A stretch of 63,212 nt of DNA, filler included, from Folioceros fuciformis (lineage: Eukaryota): NCBI GenBank assembly GCA_049999805.1. It is 5 parts of 5 records of this genome, joined end to end, with 100 filler letters (N's around TTAATTAATTAA, not from the genome) between each part and the next. Parts side by side here need not be neighbours in the genome. Positions count along the whole stretch, not along the records: positions 21,935 to 39,855 come from JBNGIO010005398.1; 4 more parts are not named here. One strand, written 5' to 3'. Below are positions 35,483 through 41,280 of the stretch, piece by piece. The notes beneath the pieces were generated by a model. The model was not told the origin of the DNA and searched no databases. It was given only the letters and a program-made list of their open reading frames with translations. The first letter of the stretch is position 1; every line of letters begins with the position of its first letter. Both the position numbers and the translations under genes were made by a program.

Positions 35483-35759
35483 TGCTAACCAGCTGTCCTG
35501 CGAACTGGACCGGGATTTGCACTTCAACCAATAACCGCTGTTCCCATGGACGACAAGGCTATCTTTGTGTGGAACGTAGCGTCGGGACTGGTACGAGTCA
35601 AGTAACAGAAAGCTGGATGATATCGTTTCGCCTTTGAGGAATTCACGCCGTTACCCAAGCATTGTTGTCGGCTGCTACTGGAACAGATGCCAAAATCAGG
35701 AGGCGACCGCTGGTTGTGGAATTGCAGACGCATTGTGGACATCTAACTTGGTGGCAGGG

Positions 35760-37589
35760 ATGCCACAGTGCATGGCATCCATAACCAGTACGAACTTCCT
35801 GCCTCCTGGCAGGCTGTGTGGCAGATTTTGCAGAGATTTATGCAAGACCATTGAGCCTGGAAGGGGAGGGCTCCGTGTTCTAGGGAGTGCTTCACCAACG
35901 TGCAACTGGAGAACAGAAGTGGGAGGAAGCGATTTCGGTTCACCGAGGAGGAAATGTTGGCCACATGTTATTAGACGAAGGCTGCAATATCAATCAACGT
36001 CTTCCAATGGGTGTACACTGGACATGGATCCCGATTTGAAAGTGGTGAGCGATGCACCTTTGCTAGGGACTCTACGAGAATGTGGAGAACAGGATACCGC
36101 GACTTTCCACTTCCCAGGTCATGGAAGGGGGAAAGCTGCCCCTCCTGATTTGCTTGAGATCTTGGGCCACGGCCCCTTTCGGCATGACCTACCAGAGCTT
36201 CCTGAGCTTGACAACCTTTTTGCTCCGGAGGGAGCTATTAGAGATGCACAAGCAAAGGCAGCAAATTTGTTTGGAGCTGATTACACCTTTTTCCTGGTGA
36301 ATGGCTCAACTTGTGGTATTCACGCAGCAGTGATGGCAACCTGTGGCACTGGCCACTACCTTGTCCTACCCAGGAGCTGCCACATGTCTGCAGTGTCTGG
36401 CATGGTCCTTTCAGGAGCTCTGCCCAAGTACGTCATGCCTGTCTATGATCCACTCTGGGGTATTGCTCATGGCGTCTCGCCCATTGCAGTAGATCAAGCA
36501 ATCTGTGAGGTGAAGAAAACCGGCGGACGAGTTGGCGCAGTGCTTGTTGTTTCTCCAACCTACTTCGGGGTTTGCAGTGATGTGGCTTCTATAGCCAGAG
36601 TATGCCACCGTCATGGTGTCCCTCTCATTCTGGATGAAGCCCACGGAGCCCATTTCAAGTTCCATCAGGACTTCCCTCCCACAGGACTTGAGCTGGGCGC
36701 CGACTTAGCCGTCCAGTCCACCCACAAAGTATTAGGCTCATTGACCCAGTCTGCTATGCTGCATCTCAGGGGACCAAGGGTGAGCCAAGAGCGGGTGAGA
36801 CGGTGCCTACAGGTCCTGCAGAGTTCTAGCCCCAGCTATCTTCTCCTTTCTTCCTTGGATGCAGCACGGGCTCACATGTCCGAAGCAGGCCCCACAGCTT
36901 TTGCTGACGCAATTGCCCTTGCTCAATATGCAAGAGATGCGTTGGAGGCCATTCCAGGAATTGATGTTCTGGATGAAGAGCGGATAAACTACACTCAAGT
37001 AGGGGAAGGAATGGCCAGCGTAGACCCTCTTCGCATCACAGTAGGTTTGTGGGAACTGGGGATGACAGGCTTCGAAGCGGATGACATCCTTAGGCTGGAA
37101 CATGGTGTCATTGCTGAGCTGCCGTTGCTCCGGTCCATCACTTTCGCTCTTCATGCAGGCACAAGCAGACATGACGTCCAGAGACTGGTCCATTCTGTCA
37201 AAGTCCTTTCCTCCAGGTCACAGCAACCGCGCATCGAGGGACAGGGGCAGGGCTTGCAGCTTGGTGCATCAGCCCAGTCACATCTGGGTCTCGTGTCCGC
37301 TTTCGAGATGGAATTTGAATCCGGTTCCGGAAGGTGCTCGGGATCTGCTCCGACAATGAGCCCCAGAGAGGCATTTTTCGCTGAGACACAGATAGTGAGT
37401 GTTGAAAAGTCATTGGGACGAGTTTCTGCTGAGTTTTTATGTCCCTACCCCCCTGGCATCCCCCTGATCGCACCTGGAGAGGTGATCACTTCAAAAGCTC
37501 TTGGGCAACTGAGAGCTGTGCTACAAGCCGGGGGCTCTGTGACTGGAGCCACTGACTCTTCCCTAACCACCATGTCTGTGCTCCGATAG
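35760..37589 (+). CDS. Prokaryote-type (fold I, AAT-fold) Orn/Lys/Arg decarboxylase, single exon, with N-terminal extension
   Basis: FHFPGHGRG, DLPELPELDNL, FLVNGSTCGI, SPTYFG, DEAHGAH, QSTHK (PLP Lys), SSSPSYLLLSSLD, DPLRI, PYPPGIPLIAPGE. First in-frame ATGs at 35760 and 35772. Confidence 0.92.
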   Translation: MPQCMASITSTNFLPPGRLCGRFCRDLCKTIEPGRGGLRVLGSASPTCNWRTEVGGSDFGSPRRKCWPHVIRRRLQYQSTSSNGCTLDMDPDLKVVSDAPLLGTLRECGEQDTATFHFPGHGRGKAAPPDLLEILGHGPFRHDLPELPELDNLFAPEGAIRDAQAKAANLFGADYTFFLVNGSTCGIHAAVMATCGTGHYLVLPRSCHMSAVSGMVLSGALPKYVMPVYDPLWGIAHGVSPIAVDQAICEVKKTGGRVGAVLVVSPTYFGVCSDVASIARVCHRHGVPLILDEAHGAHFKFHQDFPPTGLELGADLAVQSTHKVLGSLTQSAMLHLRGPRVSQERVRRCLQVLQSSSPSYLLLSSLDAARAHMSEAGPTAFADAIALAQYARDALEAIPGIDVLDEERINYTQVGEGMASVDPLRITVGLWELGMTGFEADDILRLEHGVIAELPLLRSITFALHAGTSRHDVQRLVHSVKVLSSRSQQPRIEGQGQGLQLGASAQSHLGLVSAFEMEFESGSGRCSGSAPTMSPREAFFAETQIVSVEKSLGRVSAEFLCPYPPGIPLIAPGEVITSKALGQLRAVLQAGGSVTGATDSSLTTMSVLR

Positions 37590-37691
37590 TAATTGAGTAA
37601 ATTTTAATATAGATCCCTGAGTCGGTTGGCTTATTTATCAGCACATCAGAGATTCTGACTGAAACCGTCAGCCCTAGCCTCCCCGTCGCCC

Positions 37692-37726
37692 AAACCCTAA
37701 CCACACGTGCACGTACTGTATAAATA
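37692..37726 (+). promoter_or_regulatory. Telo-box plus TATA promoter of the ncRNA cluster
   Basis: AAACCCTAA at 37692-37700, CACGTG at 37704-37709 and TATAAATA at 37719-37726; telo-box/TATA pairing is typical of plant snoRNA-cluster promoters. Confidence 0.65.
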
Positions 37727-37786
37727 TCCCCCTTCGACCTCGTGGTAGTGAGAGTCAAGTTTACTCCGCCTTCGTCTGTTGTTTGC

Positions 37787-37914
37787 GTAGTCGTCGTGAA
37801 GGATTCGGAATCGGGGCCGGTTCGCTGCCATCGTTGAAGAGGGCTTTTACGTCTGTTAGCTGGTGCCTGCGAGCTACACGGTCTGTGTCGTGTCCCTTTC
37901 CAGCTGAGGGCTAC
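37787..37914 (+). ncRNA. Candidate atypical C/D box snoRNA (~128 nt)
   Basis: Terminal stem GTAGTC/GGCTAC, box C variant GTGAAGG at 37796, box D CTGA at 37904. Guide GTGTCCCTTTCCAG is complementary (2 G-U) to recalled plant 25[15 protein letters not shown]. Confidence 0.5.
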
Positions 37915-37966
37915 AGTCGTCAGTCTGTCTGTATGTTCGTGAGCTCCTAGTTCGGGACGATGGGAT

Positions 37967-38056
37967 GGGCCACCGAGATGACGAATCTATGATTCCCTAT
38001 TGGTTTGATGGCCGGAATGATGGCCTTATTGATTCAAACTTGCTGATCAGTGGCCC
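37967..38056 (+). ncRNA. C/D box snoRNA predicted to guide 2'-O-methylation of 25S rRNA A2934 (yeast numbering)
   Basis: Perfect 7-bp terminal stem GGGCCAC/GTGGCCC; C box ATGACGA at 37978, D' TTGA at 38005, C' ATGATGG at 38017, D CTGA at 38043. The 12-nt guide TTCCCTATTGGT is the exact complement of 25S ACCAAUAGGGAA. Confidence 0.8.
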
Positions 38057-38250
38057 TCTCTCCATTGAGTTGGTCACAACCTGGACCCAACTGGCTTCCT
38101 TGGTCGTAGCGTCCTCCACGAAAGACGGGTGTAGTGGGTTTGATTGTGGTCTACACACGGCACGCAACACGGGTCCACGCCGGCTCCATTGAAGTCGCAG
38201 CTTTCTCTCGAATCTACGACTTGGTATCTTCACTACCCCTGAGCTTAGAA
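38057..38250 (+). ncRNA. Possible third structured ncRNA of the cluster, class unknown
   Basis: Dense inverted repeats (TGGACCC/GGGTCCA, GTGTAG/CTACAC, AAGTCG/CGACTT, GGTCGTAG/CTACGACT) and no credible ORF. Confidence 0.3.
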
Positions 38251-38889
38251 TATTGTTCATGAATGACGAGCGTAAAACCCAAACTTTGTTGAAGTGGCTA
38301 TGGATGAAATTAAAGAGTTACACAGACTCGTCGATGGAAGCACAATATTGCAAATCAGAATCACAGTTTGGATCAATTCTTTTTGGACAGATCCTGCACG
38401 TTCACATGCAGAAACTTGCTCATGCTATTTGCAAGAACTGCCCTCATTCGGCTCGTCTCAAACGTTCCCACGTCTTTTCCGAAGAGAAAAACACTGGAAT
38501 TACCGTGCGCTCACACATGTTCCGTCCACAATCATGCACAGTGTTTTCTATTCCATGAAAACGTGCATTGAATCGGACGTACCAACTTTCACCCACGTTG
38601 CAACGATTTGGGTCAAAAAATATTTAAGTAGGAAGAGAGTTTATGTACAATTCGGAAGTAGTACCTAAACCATAGGCCCTCAGCTCAAACCGAGGCCCAA
38701 TTGTATCCTATATCTGTCATGCACCTCTTCTGTACCCAGTGATGGCAGCTCCGGAGGTTGGCAACACAAGGTACAAGGTTGACGGACAGAGTTCAGGATG
38801 ACCTGAACATCTAGCCCCAGGTGACCCAGATCGCGAAGACTTTAACAGCAGGGACGCACATTCGACTGTGGTCCTTCGAATTCCTGCGA

Positions 38890-39855
38890 TCAAGCGTAAG
38901 AAGGCTTGATAAGCCCCAGGTTGTAGAAGAGCTGGGACTTCAAGAGGTTGCCGAAAGAAAACTTGGGCTTCACGACTTCTCTGGGAGGAGACTTGACAGA
39001 CCGGGGTGGAATCTCCACAGCCACTTTCAACATGGTCTGCCCGATCTGTTTCCTGACTGCCTCCACTACTTTCATGTCCACAGGGCACCCGCTGGCGTCG
39101 ACCACGTAGAACACGTTGACAGCTTGATCATCATGAGTGGCCACATCTGCCCTAGTCACGGAAATATTGTTCGTTGAGAAGGTACGAGTGATCTCTGACA
39201 GCAGCCCTACTCTGTCACTCGCACACAACTCTAGCCGCAGGCCCTGAAATTAACGACAAAGCCACAGATCAGTTGCGTTATCTCAAGTGGCTTACGGTAG
39301 CTAAAATCTGAATCAAGGCACTGTCGGGGGCTTACAGCTGGGGACCGTCTCTCGATCGCTGCTTTCAAGCATTTGACCAACTTCCTTCCGGCATCAGCGT
39401 CTAAAATTTCACCGTTTTTTCGACGAATAAAGTAATCCTGACGAACAAAAACACACATCCCATGAGACCTCCACAGAAAAAAAATGCAAGGCATTTTACC
39501 CTCCAAGGCCAAAGATACTGCAAATCCGTCGAGAGGGGCTGCGATCTCACCTGCACGGCTTCTCCGTTCTCCGAGTCGATGGTAGCATGGACAACAACGT
39601 AATCCATGTCTGTCAATGTGCAAACTGTGTCAAACAGAAGCTTAGGTCGGTCCTTGCACGTGATATTCACGACTGAGTAACCCTTCTCGTCTCTCACTTG
39701 CACAACAGGTTCATTCCTGTTGTCCGCAGAGGAGGTCTCCGCCGGTTCGTAGTCCCTGTCGGCGTACATGAGCTGGTGGAGTCTCCGTTCAGAATGAGTT
39801 TCCTCCAAAGCGAAATCAGTCCTAGACGACCTGTCCCCATCGTCTTTCATCACCT
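38890..39855 (-). CDS. ACR: ACT domain repeat (ACR) protein, last three exons; 5' part cut by the contig end
   Basis: '[17 protein letters not shown]', '[30 protein letters not shown]', 'CLKAAIERR', '[17 protein letters not shown]'. Confidence 0.92.
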
Positions 39856-39955
39856 NNNNNNNNNNNNNNNNNNNNNNNNNNNNNNNNNNNNNNNNNNNNT
39901 TAATTAATTAANNNNNNNNNNNNNNNNNNNNNNNNNNNNNNNNNNNNNNNNNNNN
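39856..39955. other. Artificial contig linker
   Basis: N44-TTAATTAATTAA-N44. Confidence 0.97.
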
Positions 39956-41280
39956 GACTTGACCGTCCCGCGCAGGCTGAACATCGTGATGTGCAGGAAC
40001 AAGTTCCTCCACTTGTAGACGAGGGGAGAGTGCAACCAGCTCCGGTCGAGGCGCCAGTGCTTCGTAGGTCAGGAAGGATCTCACGTCCTCCTGACAGGTA
40101 TGTTGCATCTCTTGATTATGTCATGCTGACGGATTGTGGGGAGCCCTCTTGTTACCAAGAGGCCATGTCAGTGACTGACAAAAACAAGTGGGAGAAGGCG
40201 ATGCAGTCGCAGATGGATTCGCTCCATAAGAACCAAACTTGGGAGTTGGTTCGGTTGCCTAAGGGCAAGAAGGCGTTGCCATGCAAATGGGTGTATAAGA
40301 TGAAGGACATACCCCATTATGGCAAACCCAAGTACAAGGCACGATTGGTTGCTAAAGGTTTTAAGCAACAGCAAGGTATTGACTTTGATGAGATTTTCTC
40401 ACCAGTTGTCAAAATGACTACCTTGAGATGTGTTCTTGGTCTGGTTGCGAGGAACGACATGGAACTTGTCCAGATGGTAGTGAAGATGCATCTATAGTGG
40501 GATATACGGATGTTGATTATGCACGGGATATGGACAAAAGGAGGTCCACATCAGGTTATGTCTTCATGTGCACTGGAGGGGCAGTCTCATGGCGATCTCG
40601 TTTGCAATCGTGCATAACGCTATCTACCACAGAGGCCGAGTATGTTGCAGCGACTGAGGCTTGCAAGGAAGCCATGTGGCTTGCTCGTTTAGTGGGAGAT
40701 TTGGGGATCAAGGGTGAGCTGCCAGTGTTGCATTGTGATAGCCAGAGTGCTATCCAGTTGGCGAAGAATCCAGTGTTTCATGCGAAGACCAAACATGTGG
40801 AAGTGAAGTATCACTTCATTCGAGCGGTGTTGGAAGACAAGAGGGTACAGCTTGTCAAAGTTCACACCAGTTAGAACCCTGCAGATGTTCTTACCAAGAA
40901 GCTCTCTACGGAGCAATTCGCACAAGCTCGGACACTCATGGGCATGAGCTAGACCACTCTCTTATGAAGGTAAATTGGCCTTTAAGTGGGAGGTTGTAGG
41001 GTTATTAAAGCCCAATGTGCTTAGGCTAATGTGTTTAGTCTAAGATTAGTGTCTAGTTAATGTGCTTAGACTNNNNNNNNNNCTAATGTGTTTAGTCTAA
41101 GATTAGTGTCTAGTTAATGTGCTTAGACTAATGTGTTTAGTCTAAGATTAGTGTCTAGTTAAGTATCATTAGTTTAGATTAGCTTAAGCTAATCTGTAGG
41201 AAGCTTCTTGCGCAACTTCCTGTGAGCTTCTTGTGAAGCTTCCTAGGGAGCTCTTCTAGAGGGTATAAATACCCCCTTGA
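39956..41280 (+). mobile_element. Ty1/Copia 3' remnant: internally deleted RT, RNase H, PPT and start of the 3' LTR
   Basis: 'CKWVYK..YKARLVAKGF' jumps directly to 'GYTDVDY..LSTTEAEY..CDSQSAI..KTKHVEVKYHFIR'. PPT AAGTGGGAGG at 40984-40993, LTR start TGTAGG at 40995, TATAAATA near 41265. Confidence 0.9.
41026..41162. repeat. 45-bp tandem repeat inside the LTR, collapsed around a 10-N gap
   Basis: Unit CTAATGTGTTTAGTCTAAGATTAGTGTCTAGTTAATGTGCTTAGA, about 3 visible copies. Confidence 0.85.

Follow-up and report, generated by a model that had tools for sequence, protein, structure and literature searches.

A box C/D small nucleolar RNA of the snoZ102_R77 family in Folioceros fuciformis, probably encoded by a single gene behind a putative telo-box/TATA promoter

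We analyzed the region between an Orn/Lys/Arg decarboxylase gene (+ strand) and an ACT-domain (ACR-like) gene (- strand) in a stretch of 63,212 nt from Folioceros fuciformis (GCA_049999805.1). This whole stretch, which is plant-like nuclear DNA, is called the window in the following. An earlier note on this DNA had proposed that the intergenic region contains a telo-box/TATA-driven polycistron of three non-coding RNAs, i.e. a stem-flanked C/D-like RNA ("module 1"), a textbook box C/D small nucleolar RNA (snoRNA), and a densely self-complementary RNA of ~190 nt ("module 3"). Our results favor a simpler organization: the region is likely to harbor one snoRNA gene, which belongs to a known family and lies downstream of a putative telo-box/TATA promoter, and modules 1 and 3 are probably not RNA genes. 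Only one of the three modules was supported; the other two have neither a family match, nor above-chance structure, nor conserved boxes or guides, nor similarity to the loci of relatives. What remains of the proposed unannotated ribosome-biogenesis unit is one real C/D snoRNA behind a telo-box and a TATA box; a unit of three RNAs is not supported.

To identify known RNA families, all 63,212 bases were scanned with the Rfam covariance models at gathering thresholds. Exactly one match was obtained, snoZ102_R77 (RF00359), at positions 37971-38052 on the + strand. It covers model positions 1-88 of 88, and its score of 48.4 bits exceeds the gathering score of 40. The RNA has a terminal stem of eight pairs and one mismatch (37967-37975/38048-38056), and all boxes are present (Table 1). 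The coordinates given earlier for the textbook snoRNA are exact. A motif scan for C/D elements with at most one C-box mismatch, applied to both strands of 37590-38890, returned only this element, as two overlapping C-box registers with one common D box. Across an alignment of homologous copies (A1), there is little or no variation in the boxes and in the D′ guide. The order of the boxes and the C′/D′ hairpin are those of the RF00359 family. In contrast, the score of the window copy is lower than the 75-98 bits of the angiosperm copies, its C box is AUGACGA, and it is a single copy rather than an array. A search for tRNA or tmRNA yielded none. In a scan for bacterial-type promoters and terminators, which is irrelevant for this DNA, the sole "terminator" was the C′/D′ hairpin of the snoRNA.

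Table 1. Positions of the snoRNA, its parts, the putative promoter elements, the two other proposed modules, and the flanking genes in the window
Feature	Position	Strand	Remark
Box C/D snoRNA, snoZ102_R77 family (= Arabidopsis SnoR18/SnoR77.1)	37967..38056	+	Rfam RF00359
C box AUGACGA, one deviation from RUGAUGA	37978..37984	+	same variant in the L048 and L066 copies
D′ guide UUCCCUAUUGGU, 12 nt	37993..38004	+	complementary to 25S A2931-A2942 (Arabidopsis numbering)
D′ box UUGA	38005..38008	+	invariant columns in alignment A1
C′ box AUGAUGG, within hairpin GGCC (38010-13) / GGCC (38022-25)	38017..38023	+	
D guide	38026..38042	+	pairs with 18S around U1419 (Arabidopsis numbering)
D box CUGA	38043..38046	+	
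Telo-box AAACCCTAA, putative promoter element	37692..37700	+	103 bp past the decarboxylase stop
CACGTG palindrome (G-box-like), between telo-box and TATA	37704..37709	.	direct reading
TATAAATA, putative TATA box	37719..37726	+	direct reading
Module 1	37787..37914	+	probably belongs to the 5′ leader (~210 nt) of the precursor, rather than being a separate RNA
Module 3	38057..38250	+	most likely 3′ trailer or intergenic spacer
Orn/Lys/Arg decarboxylase, intron-less open frame	35580..37589	+	Pfam OKR_DC_1 E 4.9e-62, OKR_DC_1_C E 2.2e-09
Last exon of ACT-domain (ACR-like) gene	38890..39249	-	Pfam ACT E 6e-11

Box C/D ribonucleoproteins methylate the target base that lies at the fifth position upstream of the D or D′ box. 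The target of the D′ guide was deduced from the Arabidopsis rRNA bases in the rows used here of Table S4 of a RiboMeth-seq study (PMC8053127). These rows give A2931, C2932, C2933, A2934, A2935, U2936, A2937, G2938, G2939, G2940, and A2942 of 25S rRNA; the guide is the exact complement of these 11 of its 12 target bases, position 2941 not being among the rows. A2935 lies opposite U38000, i.e. the fifth nucleotide upstream of the D′ box, and the D′ guide is therefore the part of the RNA that is predicted to place 25S A2935 at the methylation position of the box C/D complex. According to the same table, A2935 is a 2′-O-methylated nucleotide (Nm) with a score of about 0.96, and its guides are "SnoR77.1;AtsnoR18;SnoR18a;SnoR18b". 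The predicted target of the window copy is thus the one assigned to Arabidopsis SnoR18. Another candidate target, 25S A2912, was discarded on the basis of rows 2904-2925.

Arabidopsis 18S A162 is also listed as Nm in that table, with the same guides as 25S A2935. Because these guides are given for both sites in the rows used, "R77" in the Rfam name can be equated with SnoR77.1 and SnoR18. On sequence grounds, we regard the element at 37967-38056 as the orthologue of rice Z102 and of Arabidopsis SnoR18 (SnoR77.1). SnoR77Y was rejected as its identity; SnoR77Y guides 18S U582, and that target sequence does not fit. PMC5122169 names seven C/D families with conservation across land plants, snoR18 being among them, and the presence of the family in this genome is therefore expected. 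The earlier note had also held that at least two members of the proposed unit are unlike ordinary single-site methylation guides. This is not supported, as the sole real member belongs to the family Z102/R77 = SnoR18 and is a C/D snoRNA of the ordinary double-guide kind.

The second half of the double guide differs from that of most relatives. A D guide for 18S A162, the second target of SnoR18, is not present in the window copy, which carries a different guide at this place. It fits 18S rRNA around U1419: rows 1416-1427 and 1430 of Table S4 give A1416, A1417, G1418, U1419, U1420, U1421, G1422, A1423, and G1424, followed by G1425, C1426, and A1427, and the guide forms nine pairs with A1416-G1424, including one G.U pair at G1424. 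A38032 is mismatched to G1425, and pairing resumes with C1426 and A1427. U1419 is located opposite A38038, the fifth position upstream of the D box. Since the covariance model still scores above its threshold, the other D guide is a difference within the family. A target of the D guide at 18S U1384 (the U61 site) was dismissed in view of rows 1374-1396.

For comparison, metagenome contigs were scanned for the exact 17-mer that comprises the D′ guide and the D′ box. This yielded 152 matches at 126 loci. At 47 of the 126 loci, the 17-mer is part of a snoRNA with C and D boxes; at the other 79 it occurs by chance, without boxes, and these loci served as controls and not as homologues. The blastn comparison of 37400-38900 with the 126 loci revealed similarity restricted to 37966-38052. 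Of 48 homologous copies, 47 have a terminal stem with 5 bp or more, and the stem sequences differ. The 17-mer is identical in 49 distinct homologous copies, which fall into three classes according to the D guide: 42 have the angiosperm/Rfam guide for 18S A162, three have a third guide, and four are of the window type.

Altogether, six copies of the window type were confirmed with Rfam, i.e. two at locus L031, one at L095, and three at L098. Four of these six belong to the 49 distinct copies, and two were missed by the exact 17-mer. The copies at the three loci share with the window copy the D guide (UAUUGNUUCAAACUUG before CUGA) and the D′ guide, and they are 82-85% identical to it over the snoRNA. 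In contrast to A38032 of the window copy, they have a C at this position, which results in an uninterrupted duplex with 18S rRNA. They also differ in that they occur as two to three tandem copies, whereas the window copy is single, and in that their flanks have nothing in common with those of the window. One L098 copy (L098b) has a degenerate D box, CUUA, in alignment A1. The comparison of the classes suggests that the D′ half of the double guide is fixed and that the D half has been re-aimed in some lineages. That the D guide of the window copy is directed at a new 18S site, U1419, irrespective of the question of a polycistron, is possible but somewhat doubtful.

Several observations concern the genomic arrangement at individual metagenome loci. 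At L031 (1106-2180), a Ribosomal_L10/P0-like gene carries both window-type copies (1479-1563 and 1822-1906) within an intron, and its exon at 1106-1363 matches Pfam PF00466 with an E value of 7.5e-12. Between both copies, at ~1700-1745, there is a very short GUGAUGA...CUGA element flanked by GGGG/CCCC, which may represent either a remnant or a C/D RNA of very small size (mini C/D RNA). In L012, L124, and L125, Z102/R77 alternates with snoZ101 (RF00358) in clusters. The copy L012b has the 18S A162 guide without the 25S D′ guide, and its neighbor L012a has the D′ guide together with a D guide of the third type; the two guide functions thus appear to be divided between paralogues. A literature search on Z102/snoR77 and on bryophyte snoRNA clusters yielded nothing specific to bryophyte snoRNA loci.

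Haplotype differences were collected by comparison of the contigs of four coded sequencing runs (X1, X2, X5, and X6) with the window. Run X5 contributed a single short match, which lies in the ACR exon; run X6 contributed none. The DNA run X1, which carries the organism label of the window, contains a second copy of the snoRNA, the flanks of which diverge from those of the window immediately upstream of 37967 and immediately downstream of 38055. Judging from these contigs, the snoRNA is encoded at one or more additional loci of the organism, with flanks unrelated to those of the window and probably in tandem arrangement. A joint that steps back by 88, from 38054 to 37967, was also seen in run X1; it suggests tandem copies elsewhere in the genome.

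As had been noted, a telo-box and the TATA-like sequence TATAAATA are found about 100 bp downstream of the decarboxylase stop codon. Arabidopsis snoRNA genes have promoters with telo-box, site II, and TATA elements, according to an excerpt of PMC4660826. The window resembles these genes in the order of telo-box, TATA box, and snoRNA; in contrast to Arabidopsis snoRNA genes and clusters, it has one demonstrable downstream snoRNA. Among the 11 distinct homologous snoRNA loci with enough flanking sequence, four carry a telo-box in the upstream 480 nt, and none carries one downstream. Two of the four, L026 and L027, look like near-identical alleles, leaving at least three independent cases. For comparison, 41 control loci had zero telo-boxes upstream and zero downstream. 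Furthermore, 37621-37709 is free of haplotype differences among those listed, and on both sides there is one per 10-20 nt. The Arabidopsis promoter type, the upstream telo-boxes at homologous loci, and the lack of listed differences in 37621-37709 make it plausible that the telo-box is a promoter element of the snoRNA gene. From the usual spacing between TATA box and start site, we infer a transcription start at about 37750-37760.

Module 1 does have the stem and the boxes for which it was proposed as a C/D-like RNA, i.e. GUAGUC (37787-37792) pairing with GGCUAC (37909-37914), a C-like GUGAAGG at 37796 with two mismatches to RUGAUGA, and CUGA at 37904-37907. Their combination, however, is at the chance level, and no homologue was found among the 126 loci. 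With criteria loose enough for module 1, shuffled versions of the 1.3-kb region yielded 5.6 +/- 3.4 candidates each. The folding z value is -1.21, 24 of 200 shuffles fold as well, and a slightly wider piece has z = -0.30. The internal elements are in the wrong order, with the C′-like one ahead of the D′-like one. Rfam gave no match to module 1 at E <= 10, blastn gave no similarity to the 126 fetched loci, and a local alignment of the snoRNA with its upstream flank scored less than the average shuffle (469 of 500 did at least as well). The region 37789-37889 of module 1 contains 14 haplotype differences, the densest stretch among the differences listed; for comparison, the coding stretch 36500-37312 has nine in 813 nt. 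One of them, A37789T, breaks the stem in the variant haplotype, and the partner base 37912 is unchanged in the spanning X1 contig. A canonical C box, D box, and terminal stem combined with a conserved guide were not found in module 1.

Module 3 had been described as densely self-complementary, which is at odds with its folding energies. The + strand has a minimum free energy of -50.7, and its shuffles average -56.3 (z +1.17); for the - strand, z is -0.29. Sliding windows of 120 nt starting at 38050-38140 have z values of -0.42 to +1.52 on both strands. We also performed a crude scan of our own for H/ACA RNAs (hairpin, ANANNA hinge, hairpin, and ACA 3 nt from the end); it found zero candidates on both strands of 37700-38760, and shuffles gave a mean of 0.47. 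The best Rfam match in module 3, "sar", is not credible, with 22.7 bits compared with a gathering score of 43. A hairpin of the microRNA precursor type, i.e. the partner in a snoRNA-microRNA dicistron, is not supported, the folding being not more stable than that of shuffles. Module 3 has no blastn similarity to the 126 loci, and modules 1 and 3 are not alike. The alignment of the snoRNA with its downstream flank is marginal (32 of 500 shuffles score as well), and its best position, at about 38279-38298, is outside module 3. The absence of a protein signal from the modules was borne out, as five intergenic open reading frames had no Pfam match, and no coding exon was detected in the interval.

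Farther downstream, matches to snoZ163 and snoU61 at 38290-38363 were too weak (14.8 and 14.7 bits, E 7-8), and the variant haplotype has about 28 inserted bases midway in this stretch. Weak Rfam matches to CRISPR-DR4, SNORD43, and snR75 were rejected as well. Apart from the one with the snoRNA, the most structured intergenic 120-nt window is 38380-38499 on the - strand (z = -2.94, 60 shuffles), which is not significant with about 80 windows tested. The sequence TGCACGTT (~38395-38402) has its reverse complement, AACGTGCA, at ~38561-38568, and the two could form a small inverted-repeat element.

Several points favor the proposal that the telo-box and TATA box drive a polycistron with three products, namely the C/D-like RNA at 37787-37914, the Z102/R77 snoRNA, and a ~190-nt structured RNA. 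Plant snoRNAs are often clustered, and Z102/R77 is present in arrays or in Z101-Z102 clusters at many of the fetched loci. Module 1 has a flanking stem of 6 bp and a CUGA, its C-like box agrees with the C consensus at U2, G3, A4, and G6, and the segment 37886-37915, including 14 nt upstream of the CUGA, is without difference in the variant contig of X1. In addition, dicistronic snoRNA-microRNA genes exist in Arabidopsis, as described in an excerpt of PMC4660826. Nevertheless, a typical cluster combines, within a few hundred bases, at least two snoRNA genes of equal orientation, and here we found one Rfam match, one credible C/D RNA, and zero H/ACA RNAs. Beyond the sub-threshold "sar" in module 3, neither module 1 nor module 3 matched Rfam at E <= 10. 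The frequency of equally good module-1 candidates in shuffles, the wrong order of its elements, the uncompensated haplotype difference in its stem, the unfavorable folding of module 3, and the fact that the modules resemble neither the 126 loci nor the snoRNA nor each other make the three-RNA polycistron very unlikely. We assign an equally low probability to a variant of it, in which module 1 would be a fast-evolving, lineage-specific, non-canonical C/D-like RNA with the C box GUGAAGG, transcribed from the telo-box promoter together with a Z102/R77 snoRNA re-aimed at U1419. If this variant were true, the lineage would have rRNA modifications that are absent from Arabidopsis. A decay of former array members, which would turn module 1, module 3, or both into pseudo-snoRNAs, is more improbable still. 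Relatives have two to five tandem copies, the degenerate D box of the L098 copy shows that array members decay, and module 1 retains box-like remnants, but the alignments of the snoRNA with its flanks are below the shuffle mean upstream and marginal, and outside module 3, downstream, and no remnant of Z101 or any other family was found at E <= 10.

The snoRNA might also be real and be released from a longer transcript, i.e. from decarboxylase read-through or a long 3′ untranslated region, or from an intron of a spliced non-coding host gene with its start at the telo-box promoter. The intronic position of the two L031 copies of the same snoRNA type is a precedent for such an arrangement, and the 5′-splice-like sites GTATGT (37931) and GTGAGC (37939) lie just upstream of the snoRNA. 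Moreover, one contig of run X2, the kind of which was guessed as RNA, is collinear with the window from the decarboxylase through the intergenic region to 38789. However, this run may hold DNA, and a collinear contig across two genes does not prove a single transcript; it was kept out of the expression evidence. Among the sequencing runs catalogued as RNA, none contains this stretch. No contig has a splice joint across the snoRNA, and no coding exon was detected in the interval. The decarboxylase stop codon is followed by an A/T-rich stretch that resembles a plant 3′ end and precedes the telo-box, and the pair of telo-box and TATA box intervenes between the stop codon and the snoRNA. We therefore consider release from a longer transcript unlikely.

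The interpretation as a single snoRNA gene with its own promoter has to be balanced against several points. The window has two telo-boxes, compared with an expectation of 1.67; two or more also occur in 49 of 100 shuffles, so that the count is at the chance level. In relatives, the snoRNA is mostly present in arrays of two to five tandem copies, and a singleton is less common; the nearest homologous locus with context, L031, has its copies within the intron of a ribosomal protein gene. Scans with Rfam and with motifs can miss lineage-specific snoRNAs, and relatives with ~82-85% identity in the snoRNA are too distant to reveal a conserved, fast-evolving partner. Both rRNA targets were read from Arabidopsis rows and not from the rRNA of this species. 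The mismatch at 38032 leaves nine contiguous pairs beside the D box, which may be too few, so that the D guide may be weak or dead in the window copy. The literature searched contained no experimental precedent for U1419 as a target, and the Table S4 rows used list 18S U1419 as unmethylated in Arabidopsis (score about -1.3; PMC8053127), which fits the absence of this guide from the angiosperm copies.

According to the preferred single-gene interpretation, RNA polymerase II would transcribe the snoRNA from its own telo-box and TATA promoter, starting near 37755. The precursor would have a leader of ~210 nt, and subsequent trimming of its ends would proceed as far as the terminal stem. Module 1 would be the leader, and module 3 a trailer or spacer. 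Together with fibrillarin, Nop56, Nop58, and a protein of the 15.5K type, the mature snoRNA would direct the methylation of 25S A2935. In this lineage, the D guide for 18S A162 would have been exchanged for a guide for 18S around U1419.

Regarding the neighboring genes, the stop codon of the decarboxylase is located at 37587-37589 (+ strand). Near the 3′ end of its reading frame (37312-37421), 108 bases are swapped for 12 others in the DNA run and in the run guessed as RNA; both lengths are multiples of three, which points to haplotypes or strains that differ in length here without a change of frame. The ACR gene has an intron at 39243-39334, which is skipped in a contig of run X2 and has the CT..AC ends of an intron on the - strand. 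A fragment of a copia-type retrotransposon is present at 39904-40874 (+ strand; Pfam RVT_2, E 2.9e-22 for 39958-40494). It adjoins an assembly gap (N run near 39850-39960) and lies inside or beside the region of the ACR gene.

The main gain is one of annotation: an intergenic stretch without annotation, from a non-model plant genome, is now assigned an orthologue of SnoR18/Z102/R77 together with its likely promoter, and two false RNA candidates, modules 1 and 3, have been removed. Of broader interest is the change of D guide; the D′ guide for A2935 is the same in all 49 distinct copies. If the re-aimed D guide is active, it would be a clear case of half a double-guide snoRNA being redirected in land-plant evolution, and it would predict a lineage-specific rRNA methylation at the equivalent of 18S U1419.

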